DNA from: Octopus vulgaris
Lineage: Eukaryota
Length of the DNA: 64,000 bases
Direction: 5' to 3'
Assembly (NCBI GenBank): GCA_951406725.2
Contig: OX597823.1
Location: 9,796,001 to 9,860,000, forward strand
Program-made: the position numbers and the translations under genes
Notes under the pieces: generated by a model
Told to the model about the DNA's origin: nothing
The model's input: the letters and a program-made list of their open reading frames with translations, nothing else
Database searches by the model: none
Shown here: one piece after another, positions 1-49,820 of the stretch
Layout: each line of letters opens with the position of its first letter
How positions within the stretch are numbered: the first letter of the stretch is position 1

Positions 1-757
1 AATAGGTATTTCGTCTGCCGTTACGTTCAGAGTTCAAATTCCGCCGAGATCGACTTTGCCTTTCATCCTTTCGGAAGTCGATTAAATAAGTACCAGTTAT
101 GCACTGAGGTCCATATAATCGACTTAATCCGTTTGTCTGTCCTTGTTTGTCCTCTCTGTGTTTGGCTCCTTGTGGGTAGTAAAGAAATAGGTATTTCATT
201 TGCCGCTACGTTCTGAGTTCAAATTCCGCCGTGGTTGACTTTGCCTTTCATCCTTTCGGGAGTCGATTAAATAAGTACCAGTTATGCACCGAGGTTCATA
301 TAATCGACTTAATCCGTTTGTCTGTCCTTGTTTGTCCTCTGTGTGTTTAACTCCTTGTGGGTAGTAAAGAAATAGAAATAGGTATTTAATCTGCCGTTAC
401 GTTCTTAGTTCAAATTAGTCTGAGGTTGACTTTACCTTTTATCCTTTCGAGGTCGATTAAATAAGTAGCAATTACACACTGGGCTCGATGTAATCAACTT
501 AATCCGTTTGTCTGTCATTGTTTGTCCCCTCTGTGTTTAGCTTCTTGTGGGTAGTAAAGAAATAGCTATTTCGTCTCCCGCTACGTTCTGAGTTGAAATT
601 CCGCCGAGGAGGTCTACTTTGCCGTTCATTCTTTCGGGGTCGAGAAATAAAGTGCCAGTTACGCACTGGGGTCGGTGTAATCGACTCAATCCCTTTTTTC
701 TGTCCTTGTTTGTCCCCTGTATGTGTAGCCCCTTGTGCGCAATAAAGAAATAAGAAT
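1..757 (+). mobile_element. SINE family C, tandem multimer of 4 ~185-bp units (5' part outside window)
   Basis: Units restart at AATAG(G/C)TATT at about 1, 187, 377 and 561. Each has a B-box-like GTTCAAATTCC and core GTCGACTTTGCCTTTCATCCTTTCGGGGTCG. The last unit ends TAGCCCCTTGTGCGCAATAAAGAAATAAG. Confidence 0.85.
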
Positions 758-24069: not shown

Positions 24070-24345
24070 GATATTTCGTTATCCTATTTCTTTACTACCA
24101 ACAAGGGGCTAAACACAGAAAGGATGAAAGGCAAAGTCGATCTCGGGGGAATTTGAACTCGGAACGTAAAGACAGACGACATACCTATTTCTTTACTACC
24201 CACAAGGGGCTAAACACAGAGAGGACAAACAAGGGCAGACAAACGGATTAAGTCGATTACATCGACCCCAGTGCGTAACTGGTACTTAATTTATCGACCC
24301 CGAAAGGATGAAAGGCAAAGGCGACCTCGGGGGAATTTGAACTCT
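24070..24345 (-). mobile_element. SINE family C, partial multimer
   Basis: Reverse complement of family C units (CTTTACTACCCACAAGGGGCTAAACACAGA...CGAAAGGATGAAAGGCAAAG). Confidence 0.8.
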
Positions 24346-24747: not shown

Positions 24748-25206
24748 TCTTCTTCTTCCACAAGTATAGTACGGCTTCTAGAAAGGTACATCTACTGGAG
24801 AAAGACGCTTTTGTATCAACCACCACTAGTCGGCTTACATTTTAGAAAGGTTGGAAATTTCAAGAGAGACTTCGGCGGTGCCTAGCATGCAAATATCCTA
24901 TCAATATTTCCCGCTAATACATTCCATACATTGTCCATCCCTTGGATGAGAAATTTGCTAACCCATCGAACTATCGTGTTGATGGAGACTTTTCTCCGGA
25001 TCTCTCAATCAATCTTAGTGTTTCGTTGGGAACACCTGGATTGATGTCCCCACACACTTCTTTCTATACATTAATAACTTCTTTCTGATACATTCAACAA
25101 CACGTATGTAAATGACACCACCCTTCAATCCCCCTAAATTTTCCCCATACAAATACAAGTTACTACACACTAAAGCTGCATTACATAAACAGAAACCTTC
25201 AGAGCA

Positions 25207-25976
25207 GTGGTGAGCTGGCAGAATCGTTAGCACTCCGGCCGAAATGCGTAGCCGTATTTCGTCTGCCGTAACTTTCTGAGTTCAAATTCCGCTGAGGTCG
25301 ACTTTGCCTTTCATCCTTTCGGGGTCGATAAATTAAGTACCAGTTTCGCACTGGGGTCGATATAATCGACTTAATCCGTTTGTCTGTCCTTGTTTGTCCT
25401 CTCTGTGTTTGGCCCTTTGTAGGTAGTAAAGAAATAGGTATTTCGTCTGTCTATACATTCTGAGTTCAAATTTCGCCAAGGTCGACTTTGCCGTTCATCC
25501 TTTCGGAGTCGATAAACTAAGTGCCAGTTACGCACTGGGGTTGATATAATCGACTTAATCCGTTTGTCTGTCCTTGTTTGTCCTCTCTGTGTTTGGCCCT
25601 TTGTAGGTAGTAAAGAAATAGGTATTTCCTCTGTCTTTACATTCTGAGTTCAAATTTCGCCGAGGTCGACTTTGCCTTTCATCCTTCCGGGGTCGATAAA
25701 TTAAGTACCAGATACGCACTGGGGTCGATGTAATCGACTTAATTCCTTTGTCTGTCCTTGTTTGTCCTCTCTGTGTTTGGCCCTTTGTAGGTAGTAAAGA
25801 AATAGGTATTTCCTCTGTCTTTACATTCTGAGTTCAAATTTCGCCGAAGTCGACTTTGCCTTTCATCCTTTTGGGGTCGATAAATTAAGTACCAGTTACG
25901 CACTGGGGTCGATGTAATCGACTTAATTCCTTTGTCTGTCCTTGTTTGTTCGCTCTATGTTTAGCCCCTTGTGGGC
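25207..25976 (+). mobile_element. SINE family C: head plus 4 tandem 184-bp units
   Basis: Head GGTGAGCTGGCAGAATCGTTAGCA (A-box-like). GTATTTC restarts at 25254, 25438, 25622 and 25806. Confidence 0.9.
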
Positions 25977-26577
25977 CACACTCACTTTGATTGATTTAAC
26001 GTGATAAATATCGTAATCACTACTTCTGATATAATAAAAGCGAAATTCTGTCTGGCGGGGATCCCTGCATCTCAATCTACATTTGCTCTGCATAGACATA
26101 TATACCTTTTTGCAATCAAGATGAACAAGTGATGGAAAATGTGACTTTCATTTGGTTCTTGAACATCCAACATTACAATCTGATTTTAAAGCATTTGAGT
26201 TGCTATTTCAAGCAGGTAAAAATAGACTGATTCACGTCTTGGTTGGGCTTTGTCAGATGACGTCAGAGATCAAGGAGGAGATAAATGATATTTGCTTGGT
26301 TAAATTTACTTCGAGATAAGAAGTTTGGGACAATTTGGCCAACAGATGGTATTCAACTTGGGACTGGAACAATGAAATGATTGCGCCACAGGGTTAATTC
26401 TCATCCATTAATAACCTCTGATCAAACACCCCTGGGACATATAATCATTATTGATGTATCATAGTCATGCTATTTAGCTCTCTTTAGTTTTGGGCTGCAA
26501 GTCTCATTAGCCCTGCGCAAGACCTTGTGGCTTTTAAGCTAGTATATGATAAGACGTCCCTTCATTATACGAGTATG

Positions 26578-26959
26578 GTGGAGGCGCAATGGCCCAGTGG
26601 TTAGGGCAGCGGACTCGCGGTCGTAGGATCGTGGTTTCGATTCCCAGACCGGGCGTTGTGAGTGTTTATTGAGCGAAAACACCTAAAGCTCCACGAGGCT
26701 ACGGCAGGGATGGTGGTGATCCCTGCTGTACTCTTTCACCACAACTTTCTCTCACTCGTTCTTCCTGTTTCTCTTGTACCTGTATTTCAAAGGGCCGGCC
26801 TTGTCACTCTCTGTGTCACGCTGAATATCCCCGAGAACTACGTTAAGGGTACACGTGTCTGTGTAGTGCTCAGCCACTTACACGTTAATTTTACCAGCAG
26901 GCTGTTCCGTTGATCGGATCAACCGGAACCCTCGTCGTCGTAACGGACGGAGTGCTTCC
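26578..26959 (+). mobile_element. SINE family A, full length
   Basis: Near-identical to 8843-9231. TSD ATACGAGT(A/G)TG. Confidence 0.9.
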
Positions 26960-26969
26960 ATACGAGTGT

Positions 26970-27516
26970 GACGCAACTAGAGACAGCACATTCGGTTTGA
27001 ATGAGGATTCAAACTAAAACTAATCGTCTATTCTATCCTGGTGAAATCACATTCTAAACAGAACCGCTTCCCAAGATAGTGCTCTTTTGTTCAGGGCCAA
27101 AAACATTTCCCACTTCAGAAGCTGCAGATACTATTCAAGGTCAGCTGAGACTCTCACAAATGCAATGTTTTCACATTTCCCACAGTGCTCTAGTAACACA
27201 TAGTTTATTATTGGACTGCATTCAGAGAAATGTCACTCGATTGATTAGCATCTTCCATGGGTTTGAATGTTCTCACAACTTCATCTTACAAGCAATCTAT
27301 CCCATTCATATCATCCCCCCCTTGTATTGTTAAATGCAGCAACATGCATTCCACATTAATCCATCATCCAAATTCTCCCTACTGAGACCATCAATTCTTC
27401 TGGTATTTTGTCCATGTCCATGTCTTTCTTGAGCGTGTGGTACACAGCGATTGGGAGAGAATATTAACGACATCAAGCCTGCCAGGATCAGAGGACCTGC
27501 AAAGTCATGTTCACAG
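26970..27516 (+). mobile_element. Old CR1/Jockey-like LINE RT C-terminal relic
   Basis: LLDCIQRNVTRLI resembles the L(E/D).VQRRA.RLI motif. A PSNYR-like piece lies near 24963-24977. Confidence 0.45.
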
Positions 27517-27753
27517 AACCTATTCCTTTACTACCCACAAGGGGCTAAACACAGACAGGAAAAACAAGGACAGACAAACGGATTAAGTCGATTACATCGA
27601 CCCCGGTGCGTAACTGGTACTTATTTAATCGACCCCGAAAAGATGAAAGGTAAAGTCGACCTTGGCGGAATTTGAACTCAGAACGTAGCGGCAGACGAAA
27701 TACGGCTACGCATTTAGCCCGGCGTGCTAACGTTTCTGCCAACTCGCCGCCTA
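27517..27753 (-). mobile_element. SINE family C, monomer
   Basis: Head GGCGGCGAGTTGGCAGAAACGTTAGC with a single unit. 10-bp TSD ATGTTCACAG at 27507-27516 and 27754-27763. Confidence 0.9.
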
Positions 27754-28435
27754 ATGTTCACAGTACCGTCCTCCAGACTGAGGAGGTGAAGTAAATCACC
27801 AGAACAATAAGAAAAGAAACATCAAAGCTATTACAACAAGAATAAAAACAAGAAAAAAATCAGTAACAACAGCGGCAGCAACAAAAAGGATGTAGAAATT
27901 CTACGGTAAGGACGTCTGGTAACTAGATGTAGGTGGAAGATATTGCTCTTAAGAAAAGTATGAACATCAGATTAGAACATTTAATGTTAATGCCTTAGAC
28001 TTGGCAGAGCCGATGTAACGGAATTATAAATATTCCTACTATAACTAGAAAAGTATATTAACACATCCAACTTTCCAGCTCCAACTTATCTATAGATCTT
28101 CAAGTTAGCTCCATATCTACTTAAATAATCAATGTATTTGTTTTTCCGTTCCGTTTATAGAATCTGTCATTTAGTTCATGTTAGTATTTGGTGTTGTTGC
28201 TGTTATTTTAGAAGTAACATATTTGTTATTGCAATATCATTTTATTGATATACCAGAGTAAATTTTAGTAGAGAGTAAAAAAAAAAAAAAAAAACTAGAA
28301 TTCTCTATACTGGAATGTTAACAAGATTCAGTATTCCTCTATCGATCCTAATTTTATACACGACTTTAAAAAAATGTTGTTTATGATGCAAAAGAATTGT
28401 CGGAATCAATTACTGAGTGCGTATATACCCATTCC

Positions 28436-30432: not shown

Positions 30433-30650
30433 CGCCGGACATGCCGAGCAAAATGCTTACGGGTATTTCGCCCGGCTTTATGTTCTGAGTTTATATTCCT
30501 CTGCGGTCGACTTAGCCTTTCATCCAATTGGGGCCAAGAAATTAAGTACAAGTGAAACACAAGTGAAACGAAGCATTGGAGATGTAATCGATGAATCCCC
30601 TTCCAAATGTTTCAAGCCTTGTACCTGTAGTAAAAAGGATTATTATTATT

Positions 30651-31258: not shown

Positions 31259-31670
31259 GGCGGCGAGCTAGCAGAATCGTTAGCAAGCCGTGCAAGATGT
31301 TTAGAAGCATTTCGTCAAACCTATGTTCTGATTTCAAATTCCACCGAGGTATAACTTGTCATTCATTCATCCGATTCGATAAAATAACTGCCAACTGACC
31401 ACTGGGGTCGATTTAATTGTCTTACCCGTCGTCCAAATTTGCTGGCCTTGTGCCAAAATTTTGAAGCCATTCTTATTGATCTGACAGAATTGTTAGCATG
31501 TCGGGCAAATTATTTAGTGGCATTTTTTTTCCTGTCTTCTTGTTGCTATGCCTCCCATCCTTTCGGGGTCGATAAATTAACTACCATTGCAACACTGGAG
31601 TTGATGTAATCGACTAGTCCCCAACTCTGAAATTCCAGGCCTTGTGCCTTCGGTAGTAAGGATTATTATC
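31258..31670 (+). mobile_element. Two old, diverged family-C-related SINEs (others at about 10700-10910, 30020-30180, 30432-30645)
   Basis: GGCGGCGAGCTAGCAGAATCGTTAGC heads and CATCCTTTCGGGGTCGATAAA core. Confidence 0.65.
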
Positions 31671-31673
31671 ATT

Positions 31674-32131
31674 GTGTGAGAGAGCAGTTCATGCCATCAA
31701 AGTGACACTTGATCATAATATACGAAGCCCAGTATACCCATCATGACTACCCGTCTGATAAGGGTACACTAGGCACATGCATCATAACCATACGTGGGCG
31801 ATATAGTGATCTGATATCAAAATAAACAGCGCATGACCGTGCAGGTCGAGTAGTCCATCCCACTCAAAAGGTCCTTGAATATGGGTTGTTTAAGGATGTT
31901 AAACAAAACACCCATGTTTCCAAAGGTGAATTATCCAAACCGCAAAGAATTCCTTTCAATACATGGATATGATGCTCCTCCACTACTTCTGCTCGTGTCA
32001 TCAGTTACTAAGGAACATGCTCAACTGTCTAAAGTCAAACAAATGACAAGCAAATCAGTGGAATGATCAGACTATTTGCTGTAGCCCATCTTTTATACCA
32101 ATGTACATAATAACACTTCCATTGTTTTGTC
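31674..32131 (-). mobile_element. Family E retroposon, second copy
   Basis: Colinear with 30651-31183 apart from small deletions, with TTA repeats on both sides. Confidence 0.65.
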
Positions 32132-32146
32132 ATTATTATTATTATT

Positions 32147-33126
32147 TATTTTTTCTTCTTTCAAATTTGCTTCCATTTCTTGCCGAGTGTCTTCCCGACT
32201 CCTAGGGCAAAGAAACTCATAGTTTATATTGGTAGGCCATTAAACCAAACTCAGTAGTTCGTTCTTTTTTTTTTTTTTAAGTTAAATTAAAATACATGAG
32301 CAGCAACAGTTCTCACATCGACAATGCTCTTCTCAATACGTGTGATGTACCAGTTAAGACAATCTTTTGCACTTCTTGCAGGGATGGTAAGCCAGGGATC
32401 ATTCTCATATAATTTTCGGTTCCCTTCTTGATCATTCCTAGTGCTCCTACGATCACTGGTATTGTAACTGCCTTGAGATGCCACATTTTCTCAATTTCAA
32501 TGAGTAGGTCTTTATATTTTCTGAGCTTGTCAAACTCTTTCGCTGAGATATTATGATCACAGGGGATGCTCATGTCGATCAATAAGCAAACTTTATTGTT
32601 TTGGTCTTTCACAACAATATCTGGTTTATTGGCCTTGATGGTTCGGTCTGTATGTATTGGAAAGTCCCACAGAATGGTTACATTTTCTCCTTCAGTTACA
32701 GCCTCAGGGTGGTGATTATACCACTTGTCGGCAGTTTTGATATTGTAATGCCGACTTATTAGCCAGTGTAGATATTGGCCAACTCTGTCATGTCTTAATT
32801 TATACTCCACTGGAGCTAAGACTTTACATCCAGAGATTAGGTGGTCCACTGTTTCAATCATGTCGTTGCAGAATCGGCATTTTGAGTCTGCTCCATTTTT
32901 CATCACATTGGCCTGGTAGTTCCGGGTTAATAGGCTTTGATCTTGAGCAGCCAGGATGAAACCTTTGCTCTCTGCTTTTAGCCCTGAGCTCCGTAGCCAC
33001 TGATGGGTTTGCTTCTGGTCAACATCAGCTTGTTTGCTGCGGGTCACATATTTGCCGTGCAGAGGTTTTTCCTCCCACCTATCAGCCAATTGCTCGTGCG
33101 CTTTTTTCGTTGCCATTATTTTCACC
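32147..33126 (-). mobile_element. 5'-truncated R4/Dong-clade non-LTR retrotransposon in a (TAA)n array
   Basis: TAA repeats at both junctions. Contains the open frame 32313-33125 and an A-rich 3' UTR. Confidence 0.88.
32313..33125 (-). CDS. C-terminal 270 aa of R4/Dong ORF: CCHC zinc finger plus restriction-like endonuclease (truncated, no true start)
   Basis: WEEKPLHG, ILAAQDQSL, CRFC...ETVDHLISGC, RHD, ILWD, NKPDIVV...LLIDMSIP, K..KYKDL, IVGALG. No stops. Confidence 0.85.
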   Translation of the reverse strand: MKIMATKKAHEQLADRWEEKPLHGKYVTRSKQADVDQKQTHQWLRSSGLKAESKGFILAAQDQSLLTRNYQANVMKNGADSKCRFCNDMIETVDHLISGCKVLAPVEYKLRHDRVGQYLHWLISRHYNIKTADKWYNHHPEAVTEGENVTILWDFPIHTDRTIKANKPDIVVKDQNNKVCLLIDMSIPCDHNISAKEFDKLRKYKDLLIEIEKMWHLKAVTIPVIVGALGMIKKGTENYMRMIPGLPSLQEVQKIVLTGTSHVLRRALSM

Positions 33127-42042: not shown

Positions 42043-42122
<80 letters not shown>

Positions 42123-42135
42123 ATATCTATCTATA

Positions 42136-42170
<35 letters not shown>

Positions 42171-42214
42171 ATATCTATCTATCTATCTATATATCTATCT
42201 ATCTGTCTATCAAG

Positions 42215-42256
<42 letters not shown>

Positions 42257-42276
42257 TTTTCTATCTACATACCTAC

Positions 42277-42364
<88 letters not shown>

Positions 42365-42365
42365 A

Positions 42366-42396
<31 letters not shown>

Positions 42397-42434
42397 ATAT
42401 CTATCTATCTATCTACATACCTACCTATCTATCG

Positions 42435-42528
<94 letters not shown>

Positions 42529-42541
42529 ATGTCTGTCTGTA

Positions 42542-42612
<71 letters not shown>
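42043..42612. repeat. (TATC)n array, 5' flank of the Tx1 element
   Basis: Direct inspection; it resumes at 48483. Confidence 0.95.
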
Positions 42613-42937
42613 TGACGGATGTGATGTCGTTTCAGCTCCGAAGGTAATCATTTATTTTGACTATTTATAGGCCAATTTTTGTGTAGATTTTTGCAAATAA
42701 GGTGTGTAAGGCAACCAACTTTCATTTGAGTGCTTTTCCAAGGGAGGAATTCGCCCCTAGGGGCAGTTTCGACCCCATTTCATTTCTGTTATTTTCTTCT
42801 CGACATTAGAAAATGTCTAGAAATTTTATTGTTGAACGCTGGTCGCGTTCTTTTTTGGAACAACATTTTCCTAGTCTCGAAACGACAGAGAAAAAAAGAA
42901 CGTTCGCACGGAAAATGCCAACGTGAAATTCGGTGAG

Positions 42938-44675
42938 ATGAACGCTGCAACCACGTGCGTTAACAGCCCTGTCACCACCGCCACCACCACCACTAACAAC
43001 AGCAACCACGAGACAACAACTGCTACCACCACCACCTCCACCACCACCACCACCACTACCACGACCAATATAAATGATAAAAATAAAACTGAAACGAAAA
43101 CTATTGACAAAAACAACAGCAACAACAAGAACAACAATAAAAATGAACTATCTAATAGTGAAGATGCCAATACAAAAAAGTCAACAACAGTAAATTTCGC
43201 AGATATTCTTCGCCAGAAAAAGGAGATTTTTACATTCACAAATGAAGAGCTCATAGAAACAAGAGCTCTCTTTACAACCCGTGGACAAGATTTAGTCCTG
43301 CATACACCTCAACATATAAAACAAGAAATTGAAAATAAGACAATTGTATATAAAATTATTAGAAAAAACAAAAAACCAAATGAACAGATTTGATGTGGAG
43401 AAATGTTTAAAAAATATAATGAAAGAAAAAGAGTATATAAACTGGGGTCCACAGTTTAACACAGTAGTGGTCCGCTTCCCTAACCAGGAAGTGGCAAAAG
43501 CTCACTCTACTGAGTCTCTGGGAAATGATGAAATCATCATGGTCCCTTATTATAAAAACCAGAGGGTGAGTAGAATTACTATCAGAAATGTACCCCCCGA
43601 TATGCCGAACAAATGGATAACAGGGGCAATCTGTTACCACTTGAAAAAGATCAATATTCTAGAAACAGCCGTGTACCTAAACGACAATTGGGGTGGAAAA
43701 ACAGTAGTTGTGACCATCCAGATTGATGGGGCCTCTATCGAGAGCCTACCCGACAAGATATACTTGGAGAATGGGCAATGCCTATATGTTATGGCAGAAG
43801 GCAAAAAGCCTAGATGCTACAAATGTGGCAGCCCCGAACATTTGATTGCCAAGTGCGATCTGGTACAGAAAAAACAAGAAAGAACAATTCAGAAAACAAA
43901 TAAAATCCCTTTGTTGCCAACACCAACACCAACACACTCAATTATGGAACAACGCCAAGAAAAACAACAAACCCCAACAACATCACCAAGAAAAACAGTA
44001 CCAACTCAATCACCGTTGACGTCACAATCAATTAAACTTGTTGAATCTTCAAAAAATCGACCCACACCCACACCCAGGACGACAATTAAAAAGACAGAAA
44101 ACACTGACGAGAAGACAAATGCTACCCCTAACACCACAACAACACAAACACCGCACAAAACATCAACAATTTATACAAGCATACATAGTGATCCTGTTCT
44201 TTTTCCTCTACCCCATACTGATACCTCGGACGACGAAAGTTCGACGGAATGGCAAATAGCCACAGGGGGTAAAAGAAAAAGATCCAAAAAATCCACCAAA
44301 CAAGGAATTAAAGCAGGGAGATATCTCACTCAGGACAACATTCCCCTAGACAATCAGAAAAGTAATGAACCCGTAAAACCACACACACAACTAACTGCAA
44401 TAGACACAGACAATAAAGAATTAATGGACTACATCAAATCTAACATGGTCGTCTGTGAAGATGATTTTAAGACAAACAATCATCCGCACACCACACCACC
44501 GAAACACATCAGAATTTTACACATAACACAAGCACAACACCACATACTGAAAACATTATTTCCGAATGCGGTAGGCGGGTATCAACGATACCTGTCGAAA
44601 AAACTATACAAACACCTCATCAAAAACGATACAAAAGAAGAAGAAAAAAATGAAACTTTTAAAATGAGTAAGTGA
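42938..44675 (+). CDS. Tx1 ORF1 (gag-like nucleic-acid-binding protein), split by an apparent 1-nt frameshift near 43361-43380
   Basis: The frames 42923-43393 and 43329-44675 overlap in an A-run. Contains RITIRNVPPD, zinc knuckle CYKCGSPEHLIAKC (CX2CX4HX4C), a Thr/Pro-rich linker and WQIATGGKRKR. Confidence 0.8.
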
Positions 44676-44741
44676 CCTCACTTCTTGCCTCTTGTCTCTT
44701 CTAATATAGTGTGTAAAACACAATTTTCGTAATTGTCAAGT

Positions 44742-47700
44742 ATGCTTAAATTAGGTTGTGTGAATGCGCGTGGCTTGGCGTCGGCTTGGAAGCAAGGTTA
44801 CCTTCTAAACGACATCAAGTCACTGGACGTGGATATAGTAGCTATCAGCGAAACCAGACTCAGTAAGCCGCGGGCCCTCGAGTCCATGTTTGGCAATCAA
44901 TTTGACATTTATTTTTCTCCCTGTCTGCCGAACATGGGTGGTGGAGGTACTGCGGTGCTTTTTCGAAAGAGTCTAAAGGTAAAAGTAAGAGCAATATTCC
45001 TAGACCCGGAGGGTAGGCTGGTTGTCTTGGACGTGGATGGCAGAAATGGGTGTGCATTCCGTCTGATGGCAGTTTATGCACCGTCCTTAACGGGTCGGGC
45101 GGATTTCTTCAGACGTCTAGAGGTTTTCCTGGGTACGTCTAGACCTTTACTGTTAGTAGGGGATTGGAACGCTACCTTGGACACGCATCTAGATTATGTG
45201 GGAAGGGATAGGAATAGAAGGGGGTGTAAGAGCCTCAAAGACCTGCTCAGACGTTTCCATTTGTCTGACAGGTTCCGACTCGACCATCCGAACGTGCCAA
45301 CGTGGACTCGGACAAACCGCGTCGGATCGTCGAGATCTTATCTAGATAGAATTCTATGCAGGACAGCGGATAGGGATAGTGTAGGATGTCCACAATTTAA
45401 AATAGTCAGCTACACAGATCACAAATTTGTTACGTGTACGCTCGACTTAGATAAAACACATAGGCAGGGTCCCGGTTACTGGAAACTGAACACGTCGCTG
45501 TTAGCGCGACAGGTTTACAGGAACCGGATTAGCGAGTTAATTAAGAGGGCGCTGACGGGAGCGGTCGTTAACAACCGCTGGTGGTACGCCCTGAAAATGG
45601 CAATAAAATCGGAATCAATTAGGTTTAGCAAGGAATTAGCGATAGAACGAAATAGAGTAGAGGGAGACTTAGTTAAGAAACTAGAAGAGGCACTTACCAC
45701 TGGCAGCGCAACCAACGTGCTAGCTGCGAGGATGGCCCTCGACCAACACCTCAACGCCAAGCACGAAGGTTGCGTCGTCAGAGCTAAAATGCGTGCCTTA
45801 AGGAACGAAGGGATTGAAGCTGCGCGAGAGGCCCGGGTAGCGGAGGCGCAGCGTGGCAACAGATCAACCATTCGGTCTCTAATAGATCAACAGGGATGCA
45901 GTTTACTCGAACCCGAAAGGATGTGTGAGGCCTTTCAACAGCACTTTGCTCGACTGTTTGGTGCGAGTGGTGGGTCGGAACGAGGGATGGATTTCAGTGC
46001 CTACCTGACCGACCTGCCGCGGCTCTCGGCAAGAGAGGCGGAGTGTTGTGAAAGTCCCATCACAGCCGCTGACGTGTGGGATGCGATGGCGGGCTGCGCG
46101 AGGGATAAGTCGCCTGGATTGGATGGTTTACCCTACGAGCTGTATTGTCGAATGCCAGACTTGTTTGGCGAACTCTTGGCATCAGTCTACTGCAACTGGC
46201 AACAAAACGGGAGAATCCCCGGTTTCGTGAGCCGAGGTGCAGTGACGTTGCTGAAGAAAGACTCAAACAAGGGGAATTTTATAGATAATTTCAGGCCCAT
46301 CACTCTGCTCAACGCAGATTTGAAAATTTTGGCCAAAGTAATAGCCGAGAGGTTGGCGCTTGTCATTGGTAAACTGGTCGACAGGGCGCAAACATGCGCC
46401 GTGCCGGGCAGAACCATACATGACAACCTCCATCTGATGCGCTACATTGTGGACAGGGTAGTTAAGGATCCTGGCATGGGTGGGGCGCTGATCAATTTGG
46501 ATCAGTCTAAAGCCTTCGATAGGGTCGACCATCGGTACTTGGCGGCCGTCCTCAGGGCGGCTGGCTTCGGTCCCGTCTTCCGCGGTTGGATCGCTGCCTT
46601 GTATAGCGGCATCCGATCGGTGATTCGGGTAAACGGTCACCTGTCTAAACCGTTTGACATCACGCGTTCGGTCCGTCAGGGGTGTCCCCTGTCGGCGCTT
46701 CTGTATGTATTGACTCTCGAGCCGCTACTGCGGAAGCTGGCGACACTGAGGGGCATCCCACGGGAACTGGGTTGCGAGACGAGCGTGTCGGCATATGCGG
46801 ACGATGTCACCGTCATAGTGTCGAGCTACCAGCACATCGAGCTGGTCGGCGAGACACTAAGAAAATATGAAACGGTGACGGGAGCAAAGATTAACCCGGA
46901 AAAGTCAGTGGGTTTGCTACTCGGCACCTGGAGAAGCAAGCCCATGCCGTCCGACTGCGGCTCAGTAGTGGGACGCTGGACGGACGGACCGGTTAAATTG
47001 CTCGGGGTCTGGTTCAGTCCGGACCTCCAAATGGATAAGAACTGGGACGAGATCACGAGTAGAGTGGTCGCTCTCAGCCAAACATGGGCCGAGAGAAAGC
47101 TGTCTCTAAAAGGCCGGGCGGAGGTGGCGAACGCGTACATCGCATCCGTCATCGATTACCGCCTGACCGTCGTACCTTGTCCCGACGCCACCATCACCAA
47201 ACTGGAACGCATACTCTTCCGCTTCCTGTGGAAGGGTGGCGTTCCGATGGTGAGGAAGTCCATTTGCTGTCAACATCCGTTGAATGGAGGACTGGGCATG
47301 CCGTGGTTGATGATGCGCAGGCATGCGCTGAGACTGCGACATCTCTGGAAATTCATCGACGATTGTGAACAGGTGTGGGCGCCGTTTGTGAGGCGCGACT
47401 TCCCGCAGCTCGTCTCACTGACCGAACTGCAAACGTGGATCAAAAAGAGACCGAAACTGGGCGATTGGCACCGAGAGTGTCGCCAAGCTCTACAGCAGCT
47501 CTGCCGACCGGGGTCAAACTTGTGCAACTTACAAACGACTAAAGCGTTCTATAGAGGACTAGTGGAGGGGAGGTCCGACGACACACTCGGGGCAAACCTG
47601 GGCGTCGACGAGGAATTCCTAACCCGCCTGTTCAGGACGACGTTCGGGCCGGGGCCTATGGATAACTTCCAGAAATCCCTGGCTTGGCAGTGCTATCGAG

Positions 47701-48182
47701 ACGCACTACCTGTTCGAGAGAAGAGCTACAGACACGGTTCGAAAACCATCACCGGACCGACCTGCCCGAGATGCGGTCAAAGCGACGAAACCGTTCTGCA
47801 CGCACTCGTGCAGTGTCCAGATATTTCAGAGCTGTGGTCCTTCGTCGAACAGCTGTTGTCACGTGTAGGTCAGGCTCGCCTATCGGCCGAGTCTATTGTG
47901 AATATTGTTCCACCACCTTCCTTTAAACGGGAAGGGAAAACGGTTTTCGTTACGCTGATGGCTATGGCGAAAGAATGTGTGTGGTGGACGCGTTTGAAAG
48001 GACTGCAAACAAACACCTTCCTCTCTGGTCAGTCTCTCGTCAACTTTTTCAAGTACCACTTGAAAAGGAGGATGAGAATAGAGAGGAAGGCTTTGTCGAA
48101 CGAATGTTTTAATAAAAAGTGGGTAAAAGTGGCAAAAATGGTCAGTATGAAAGACGACACTATTTTAAGCATAAATCTGTAA
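44742..48182 (+). CDS. Tx1 ORF2: APE endonuclease, reverse transcriptase and C-terminal zinc finger (1146 aa, uninterrupted)
   Basis: APE motifs NARGL, ISET, VYAP, GDWN, YLDRI, TDH, then WKLN. RT motifs SPGLDG, FRPITLLNAD, DQSKAFDRV, RQGCPLS, YADD. Also GGLGMP and CPRC...ETVLHALVQC. Confidence 0.95.
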   Translation: MLKLGCVNARGLASAWKQGYLLNDIKSLDVDIVAISETRLSKPRALESMFGNQFDIYFSPCLPNMGGGGTAVLFRKSLKVKVRAIFLDPEGRLVVLDVDGRNGCAFRLMAVYAPSLTGRADFFRRLEVFLGTSRPLLLVGDWNATLDTHLDYVGRDRNRRGCKSLKDLLRRFHLSDRFRLDHPNVPTWTRTNRVGSSRSYLDRILCRTADRDSVGCPQFKIVSYTDHKFVTCTLDLDKTHRQGPGYWKLNTSLLARQVYRNRISELIKRALTGAVVNNRWWYALKMAIKSESIRFSKELAIERNRVEGDLVKKLEEALTTGSATNVLAARMALDQHLNAKHEGCVVRAKMRALRNEGIEAAREARVAEAQRGNRSTIRSLIDQQGCSLLEPERMCEAFQQHFARLFGASGGSERGMDFSAYLTDLPRLSAREAECCESPITAADVWDAMAGCARDKSPGLDGLPYELYCRMPDLFGELLASVYCNWQQNGRIPGFVSRGAVTLLKKDSNKGNFIDNFRPITLLNADLKILAKVIAERLALVIGKLVDRAQTCAVPGRTIHDNLHLMRYIVDRVVKDPGMGGALINLDQSKAFDRVDHRYLAAVLRAAGFGPVFRGWIAALYSGIRSVIRVNGHLSKPFDITRSVRQGCPLSALLYVLTLEPLLRKLATLRGIPRELGCETSVSAYADDVTVIVSSYQHIELVGETLRKYETVTGAKINPEKSVGLLLGTWRSKPMPSDCGSVVGRWTDGPVKLLGVWFSPDLQMDKNWDEITSRVVALSQTWAERKLSLKGRAEVANAYIASVIDYRLTVVPCPDATITKLERILFRFLWKGGVPMVRKSICCQHPLNGGLGMPWLMMRRHALRLRHLWKFIDDCEQVWAPFVRRDFPQLVSLTELQTWIKKRPKLGDWHRECRQALQQLCRPGSNLCNLQTTKAFYRGLVEGRSDDTLGANLGVDEEFLTRLFRTTFGPGPMDNFQKSLAWQCYRDALPVREKSYRHGSKTITGPTCPRCGQSDETVLHALVQCPDISELWSFVEQLLSRVGQARLSAESIVNIVPPPSFKREGKTVFVTLMAMAKECVWWTRLKGLQTNTFLSGQSLVNFFKYHLKRRMRIERKALSNECFNKKWVKVAKMVSMKDDTILSINL

Positions 48183-48481
48183 CCAAAAGAGACAACGAGA
48201 AGTAAGGCGACTTACTCATGTGTTCTTTTTCGAATTGCCTGAGGTGACCTTGGTCTTTTTTGTAGGTTTTTCTTTCCAAGACTACACCTAAACTGTGAAC
48301 CTTATATATATATATATATTGCTTTTTTATACACCACACAACCCACAAATCCCTATTGATCAAACGTTTTTTTTTTTTTTTTTTTTTTTGCCCCACCCAT
48401 CCCACCTCGAAAAGAAAAATTCTACATTGTATTTCGTCCATTTTTATTCTGTGTTTAGCCCTGTGTGGCTACAATAAAAAG

Positions 48482-48482
<1 letters not shown>

Positions 48483-48556
<74 letters not shown>

Positions 48557-48565
48557 CATACCTAC

Positions 48566-48608
<43 letters not shown>

Positions 48609-48700
48609 CCTACTTACCTACCTACCTATCTATCTATCTACTTACCTACCTACCTACCTATCTATCTATCTATCTATCTATCTATTTCTATCAATCTATC
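48483..48700. repeat. (TATC)n/(TACC)n array, 3' flank of the Tx1 element
   Basis: Direct inspection. Confidence 0.95.
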
Positions 48701-49510: not shown

Positions 49511-49820
49511 TGAAGGCGCATGGCTCAGTGGTTAGAGCGTCGAGCTTACGATCGTGAGGTTGTGAGCTCGAATCCCGGACCGGGCTGCGTGTTGTGTTCT
49601 TGAGCAAGACACTTTATTTTTCACGTTGCTCCAGTTCACTCAGCTATAGAAATGAGTTGCGACGTCACAGGTGCCAAGCTGTATCGGCCTTTGCCTTTCC
49701 CTTGGATAACACTGGTGGCGTGGAGAGGGGAGGCTGGTATGCATGGGCGACTGCTGGTCTTCCATAAACAACCTTGCCCAGACTTGTGTCTAGGAGGGTA
49801 ACTTTCTAGGTGCAATCCCA
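49511..49820 (+). mobile_element. SINE family D (tRNA-derived head, distinct body)
   Basis: A box TGGCTCAGTGG, B-box-like GCTCGAATCCC, then GTTGTGTTCTTGAGCAAGACACTT and CCAGTTCACTCAGCT. Runs into (TA)n. Confidence 0.8.

Follow-up and report, generated by a model that had tools for sequence, protein, structure and literature searches.

The window analyzed here, the whole stretch of 64,000 nucleotides from Octopus vulgaris (contig OX597823.1, positions 9,796,001-9,860,000), contains a full-length LINE whose 3′ tail lacks poly(A) and resembles the end of SINE C, a dispersed non-coding element of ~230 letters. The locus raises the question of which enzyme copies the SINE, and by which feature of the RNA such a passenger would be chosen. 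An earlier note on this DNA had proposed that an enzyme of the Tx1 group recognizes a structured tail and thereby mobilizes the SINE. The reading favored here, at a probability of roughly 0.7, is that SINE C and the Tx1-type families have this conserved poly(A)-less tail in common, and that the ORF2 of a sister clade of the window LINE (the G clade) copies the SINE via a predicted hairpin in this tail. The LINE and its target are composed as follows (window positions):

42043 to 42611, plus strand: (TATC)n array on the 5′ side of the target, from the sequence
42612 to 48483, plus strand: full-length L1-group (Tx1-type) LINE, family A, 5′ end approximate
42875 to 44675, plus strand: ORF1 region with two overlapping frames, 42875-43393 and 43320-44675
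44733 to 48182, plus strand: ORF2 (1149 aa) with AP-type endonuclease, reverse transcriptase, and C-terminal zinc motif, from Pfam
48426 to 48483, plus strand: conserved poly(A)-less 3′ tail, common to Tx1-type families and SINE C
48456 to 48471, plus strand: predicted hairpin with 5-pair stem and 6-letter loop
48473 to 48478, plus strand: AATAAA, predicted in several families to pair with a T/G-rich stretch 5′ of the hairpin
48484 to 48700, plus strand: (TATC)n array on the 3′ side of the target, from the sequence

The 3′ terminus of the LINE (48483) immediately abuts the (TATC)n array; the arms of the predicted hairpin are formed by positions 48456-48460 and 48467-48471. Pfam matches in ORF2 were PF03372, PF00078 and, slightly below the cut-off, PF13966. 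Among solved structures, human L1 ORF2p was the best match (E 1e-58, vs 1e-21 for R2), a contrast that is partial, because RTE, CR1, and L2 proteins were absent from that list of relatives. A protein search with ORF2 returned four relatives only; the single named one, from Argonauta hians, was 58% identical across the C-terminal 390 residues. The label Tx1 rests on domain order and target specificity, no named Tx1 having been returned for the tree. The ORF1 region yielded no Pfam match, and one CCHC knuckle is recognizable by eye in its second frame. The two frames (42875-44675) overlap near an A-rich stretch, and the double frame is likely a frameshift of this particular copy.

Family A prefers (TATC)n as its target. 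A first look across the genome with its 3′ end gave 1333 candidates, of which 40 were scored and the best 30 fetched, and all 30 of these top matches (the query contained 7 letters of the TATC array) carried the tail, followed by the (TATC)n repeat. That the tail might be a SINE fragment captured by the window copy, an objection which the earlier note itself had raised, is thereby excluded. TATC arrays often house several Tx1-type families in the same orientation (L004, L010, L014-L018, L020, L022, and L027). Just 3′ of the window LINE lies a further tRNA-like SINE family (49513-49820, plus strand), which we take to be CORE-like.

SINE C occurs singly or as head-to-tail units, and both arrangements are found in the window:

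1 to 750, plus strand: SINE C, four units arranged head to tail, with three of the units having their junction at the site in the SINE head that family G uses
24087 to 24343, minus strand: SINE C, two partial units, with the 14-letter match at 24207-24220 and 24106-24119
25207 to 25975, plus strand: SINE C head, then four units with junctions at the family G head site
27523 to 27750, minus strand: SINE C, full-length single copy at a non-TATC site, flanked by a target duplication of 14 letters

The likeness between the two elements had been noticed as 14 identical nucleotides, and these were found exactly as claimed: positions 48448-48461 of the LINE recur without mismatch in three SINE copies of the window (24106-24119, 24207-24220, and 27542-27555, all on the minus strand), and 17 matches with up to two mismatches compare with 0.31 expected. 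The homology is longer than this motif and spans about 50-60 letters; alignments of SINE with LINE tails scored 39-66, compared with means of 15-19 for shuffled tails. A tail profile built from 22 Tx1-type LINE tails and no SINE rows (threshold at least 15 bits) found 60 matches in 780 kb of evenly spaced sequence, namely, 53 SINE C tails and seven LINE-type ends, four of which lie behind a Tx1-type ORF2 and three of which resemble short Tx1-type ends. The same 780 kb, when reversed, gave no match. No other kind of LINE end matched the profile in these 780 kb; the better match in another LINE clade envisaged by the earlier note did not turn up among the profile matches. The one other-clade LINE end that was compared individually, in the window, is unrelated to the tail; it belongs to the 3′ part of a LINE with a restriction-type endonuclease and an AAT-repeat end (32150-33125, minus strand), presumably Dong/R4-like.

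Every Tx1-type family sampled carried a homologue of the tail, and AATAAA or a near variant was retained in 22 of 22 LINE representatives. The targets of these families differ: TATC for the A and B types, ATT/ATC for the young family D and the older families E and F, TC for one copy, and the SINE head as well as varied sites for the G clade. Sequence comparison thus supports a Tx1-lineage origin of the SINE C tail, and this origin is graded much firmer than any role of the hairpin. Exchange in the opposite direction, from SINE to LINE, may also have occurred, as two loci (L255 and L257) combine the 3′ UTR of family G with a SINE-type tail end.

SINE C tails are numerous: 52 were counted in 78 evenly spaced stretches of 10 kb (780 kb), which extrapolates to ~190,000 in the 2.8 Gb genome. 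None of the 52 has poly(A), and the SINE termini lie within a few letters beyond the point where the LINE stops. Target duplications of 12-25 letters were found in 13 of the 41 chains listed, and the copy at 27523-27750, with its 14 letters, agrees with the earlier observation of duplications at non-TATC sites. The initial letters of the duplications often match the final letters of the SINE, which suggests pairing between RNA and target; such pairing would explain why the SINE occurs in three 3′ variants, one found at the head site, one at TA runs (466 exact matches), and one at another site within the head. The core domain may belong to the Meta/Deu/Nin superfamily, and we assume that the element resembles the octopus OK SINE (Ohshima and Okada 1994). 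No tRNA was detected in the head (ARAGORN, 0 hits; Rfam, 0 hits in 25150-27800), and words resembling A and B boxes are visible there by eye. In the accessible parts of PMC4824008 and PMC3531059, no partner LINE is named for the OK SINE, and two supplement files of PMC4824008 contained no match to the SINE C core.

Candidate carriers of SINE C were sought by the combination of tail and SINE head. This pattern search gave 34 matches, of which 30 were fetched: 29 SINEs and the first copy of family G, which then served as the query that retrieved the family. Behind the tail lies the SINE head, from position 48 onwards, in 28 of 30 family G loci (of the other two, one is masked at this place and one is a chimera). 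Intact young copies with an ORF2 of 1134 aa were present in three fetched loci, a copy with intact ORF1/ORF2 lies at G000:C17:54.657-54.662 Mb, and one intact copy is flanked by a 16-17-letter duplication of the SINE-head site. The same site follows 19 of the 52 SINE tails (chance, 0.00016 per position). Three SINEs inserted there (L063, L206, and L219) show both the host head and the duplication and are therefore true insertions; many other SINE-in-SINE joints may stem from tandem duplication or multimer transcripts. A single multimeric master as the sole cause of the tandem SINE arrays was dropped, because nested copies show host head and duplication. Further insertion sites in the SINE head lie at approximately position 14 (L192, L227, and L294) and position 35 (L348 and L353), of which one serves a SINE 3′ variant and the other a further family of the G clade.

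Sister families of G, retrieved by protein search at 58-71% identity, carry the tail in 35 of 37 loci. Several sister pairs share flanks, whereas flanks otherwise vary, which indicates that some of these families use their own targets. Two sister copies are flanked by duplications, one of 16 and one of 19 letters (one mismatch each), that fall inside the SINE range. In the ORF2 tree (FastTree; two of 61 loci, with fewer than 150 residues, were dropped), the G clade forms a single branch of 34 rows with support 1.0; the support for the deep branching among A/B, D/E/F, and G is 0.14. When each SINE tail was compared with 22 representatives (one self-chosen copy per family), a G-clade family was the best match of 51 of the 52 (K of 34, Q of 11, and old G of 5, with K and Q tied once) and B2 that of the remaining one. 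SINE C and the G clade also have the stem type in common. None of the LINE tails compared was identical to a SINE tail, so that an exact donor was not found among them. The carrier of SINE C is thus likely the sister G clade, as judged from tails and insertion sites. The driver suspected by the earlier note, a related but non-specific Tx1, is retained as to the relationship and qualified as to the lack of specificity, for one candidate family is strictly specific for the SINE head.

The fold of the shared tail was assessed by comparing the tails with one another. RNAalifold predicted a 4-pair hairpin for 22 LINE and three SINE tails, with 89% of the paired cells occupied by pairs, compared with 78.3 ± 2.2% in shuffles (reached in 0 of 500). 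Seven double changes occur in the stem, a number reached in three of 500 shuffles; the shuffle control ignores the relatedness of the families, and because these are related, the seven changes amount to about four events. With loops of 4-6 letters permitted, a swap test gave no significant result (3.73 vs 3.59 ± 0.14; 1031 of 5000). The covariation proposed as a check in the earlier note was therefore borne out by one test and not by the other, and the hairpin covariation across the tails is suggestive. Single tails fold weakly (z from −0.09 to −2.26 across eight tails); for the window tail alone, z was −0.55, and 49 of 200 shuffles folded equally well.

At the third pair of the predicted stem, families A-F and O have G-C, the SINE shares C-G with most of the G clade, family I has T-A, and family H has A-T; the loop comprises six, five, or four letters depending on the family. 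The stem that the earlier note had described as similar in LINE and SINE is present in the sequence of both, but its register in the SINE differs, with four pairs, a loop of five letters, and C-G in place of the G-C of the window LINE. Of the A-rich end noted at the same time, AATAAA is present at 48473-48478, and no poly(A) follows it. In several tails, this motif is predicted to extend the stem by pairing with the stretch 5′ of the hairpin. In 29 of 52 SINE tails, its second A is a G, which spoils the poly(A) signal and keeps the predicted lower stem. As the covariation results are mixed, reading of the hairpin by the enzyme remains a proposal.

The favored mechanism would begin with a SINE head and core that acquired the tail of a G-clade LINE through template switching. 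The resulting SINE, presumably transcribed by pol III, would be bound at its hairpin in trans by a G-clade ORF2 protein, which would then nick the target. Reverse transcription would begin some 15-20 letters behind the hairpin, with priming assisted by pairing between the terminal letters of the RNA and the target. Family A would be a younger, TATC-specific cousin that has retained the tail and altered the loop. The shared poly(A)-less tail thus suggests that Tx1-type LINEs are likely to choose their passengers by a folded RNA tail.

Because the tail is short and T-rich, one might put the likeness down to coincidence, or to a single LINE copy that picked up a piece of a SINE; the odds of this are negligible given the presence of the tail in all 30 family A copies and all sister families, the alignment scores, and the 60 matches of a LINE-only profile vs none in reversed DNA. 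A main role as carrier is also very unlikely for family A or its sister B. In favor of it, family A and three SINE copies agree exactly over 14 letters; 170 SINE-type tails genome-wide enter an ATCT array directly and in the orientation of family A, a few of them with the last letters of family B, and most of 25 such tails inspected have TATC flanks on both sides. However, 138 tails enter in the opposite orientation, random expectation is ~307 by a rough estimate, and among the 52 sampled SINE tails, TATC follows none and family A is the best match of none. The loop has six letters in family A and five in SINE C, and the third pair is G-C and C-G, respectively. In the L2 elements tested, the loop sets specificity (PMC4176376, accessible parts), which would fit the exclusion of family A. 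SINE units diverge from their majority sequence by a median of 5.6% (range 2.8-12.9, n = 49), compared with 4.8% for old G (n = 30) and 0.2% for A (n = 29, without L018), the values for A and G being biased toward top-scoring matches. Rows L101, L122, L123, L126, and L255 were omitted when majority sequences were made. Within these biased samples, the activity of family G overlaps in time with that of the SINE, whereas family A is younger than the SINE burst. The window family is thus likely not the carrier, and it may have carried few if any SINE copies, occasional help from TATC-type enzymes being conceivable; of the earlier claim that a Tx1-group enzyme mobilizes the SINE, the Tx1 origin of the tail survives and the partnership with the window family does not. 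Equally improbable is an early acquisition of the tail by the SINE, with present-day mobilization through another LINE clade (RTE, CR1, or Dong/R4). Activity of other clades in octopus is documented (PMC13282606, table 1, accessible part), and the family G site is not the one behind ~60% of SINE tails. Against another clade stand the SINE ends, which stop at the Tx1-type end with no further tail or repeat, the target duplications, the lengths of which match those of the G clade, and the unrelated tail of the one other-clade LINE end compared in the window. A point against the G-clade explanation itself is a subgroup of SINE C inside (TA)n tracts, for which one narrow search found no matching LINE.

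A different objection leaves a Tx1-type enzyme in place and concerns its signal: the enzyme may move the SINE without the hairpin being that signal, with the conserved part acting in 3′ end formation or being recognized as plain sequence, and with priming provided by pairing between RNA and target. The weak folding energies, the non-significant swap test, the AATAAA motif or its near variants in all LINE representatives, and the SINE duplications that begin with letters matching the RNA end are all in line with this. It is nevertheless unlikely, since the third stem position is occupied by four types of pair across the families, the seven double changes were rarely reached by shuffling, and more than half of the SINE tails (29 of 52) have given up the second A of AATAAA with the lower stem preserved. 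Recognition of the hairpin by the G-clade ORF2 is thus preferred.

The published systems are compared here on the basis of parts of the cited papers. Shared 3′ tails are known in the L1 group; the novel part, as far as the sequences tell, would be an animal pair of Tx1 type that is poly(A)-less and target-specific. A 2012 survey lists three SINEs with shared hairpin tails in the L1 clade: ZmSINE2 and ZmSINE3 of maize and sorghum with LINE1-1_ZM, and SINEX-3_CR of Chlamydomonas with L1-1_CR (PMC3472496 and PMC3747384). In these plant and algal pairs, too, LINE and SINE are alike over their last 50-80 letters or so, a part that contains a predicted hairpin, and the compensating changes in it have a suggestive counterpart in octopus; in contrast, the algal pair ends in poly(A), whereas the octopus families are of animal Tx1 type, lack poly(A), are target-specific, and are accompanied by ~190,000 SINE tails. 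In crocodilians, SINEU is tied to Tx1-Mar by its target; SINEU has poly(A), and no LINE is described as sharing the 3′ end of SINEU-1 (PMC4494074). In both cases, the SINE is linked to Tx1 enzymes via a common target within another mobile element, but this is a DNA transposon for SINEU, whereas in octopus LINE and SINE have the tail in common, and the head of the SINE itself is among the targets. UnaL2, ZfL2-1, and ZfL2-2 (PMC4176376) resemble the present families in having a 3′ stem-loop near the end; their stems are exchangeable and their loops family-specific, as the loops of six, five, and four letters suggest for the present families; these stringent L2 elements belong to another clade, and binding and transposition were tested there, whereas the present case is one of sequence comparison. 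Kibi, Koshi, and the crocodilian (TTCC)n/(TTTC)n Tx1 families (PMC4494074) are, like family A, LINEs with an AP endonuclease that use one microsatellite in one orientation; the target here is (TATC)n, and the likeness is drawn from their description only. For bivalve SINEs, the partners given are CR1, L2, Nimb, and CR1-Zenon, and Tx1 does not figure in the accessible parts (PMC11481361, PMC4824008, and PMC4758252). Cephalopod repeat surveys, in the parts accessible, list L1-Tx1 and SINEs without pairing them (PMC13282606 and PMC8967140), and the accessible parts of PMC3531059 and PMC5786205 contain nothing on a pair of Tx1 and SINE C. A published Tx1-SINE pair with a shared tail was not found in the open literature; Repbase reports, subscription papers, and supplements may contain one.

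Tentatively, and with less than even odds in our estimation, the 3′ hairpin of animal L1-group elements could be an address code replacing poly(A), in which stem type and loop length would sort RNAs between the many Tx1 families present side by side and the end letters would pair with the target. The SINE, having taken over the G-clade address, would be cargo and landing pad at once, with feedback between the two roles. If true, this feedback could explain the rise to ~190,000 SINE tails, and the pair would show from the animal side that recognition of specific tails goes far back in the L1 group, the reading of poly(A) being a later relaxation. A likely engine is also named for a SINE expansion that ranks among the large ones in this genome. 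The related families differ in loop, stem, and target, and intact ORF2 copies exist in families A, D, G, and I, so that the question of the hairpin is directly testable by tail swapping.

The SINE C copies inside (TA)n tracts (L152-L181) form a subgroup with 466 exact matches, compared with roughly 100 expected (three sampled copies). A search for a (TA)n-targeting Tx1 partner with two patterns found one place, which was a SINE copy; and of 30 fetched SINE-type ends in front of (TA)n, 29 had a SINE body and one was too short, with an ORF2 upstream of none. Other SINEs share head and core with SINE C but have a different tail that ends in ATT repeats, both in the window (30462-30620, 31322-31450, and 31557-31680, plus strand) and outside (L057, L093, L122, and L128). 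By eye, this tail contains a hairpin with the identical five-letter loop and reversed stem pairs; judged by its sequence, this could be another tail of Tx1 origin, adapted to families that target ATT. Among the latter, the young family D forms head-to-tail arrays (G000:C4:93.80-93.83 Mb, contigs C47 and C50; L133-L138 and L184), in which full-length copies ~5.87 kb apart are joined by a few ATT units, and many of these array copies have an open ORF2 of 1145 aa.
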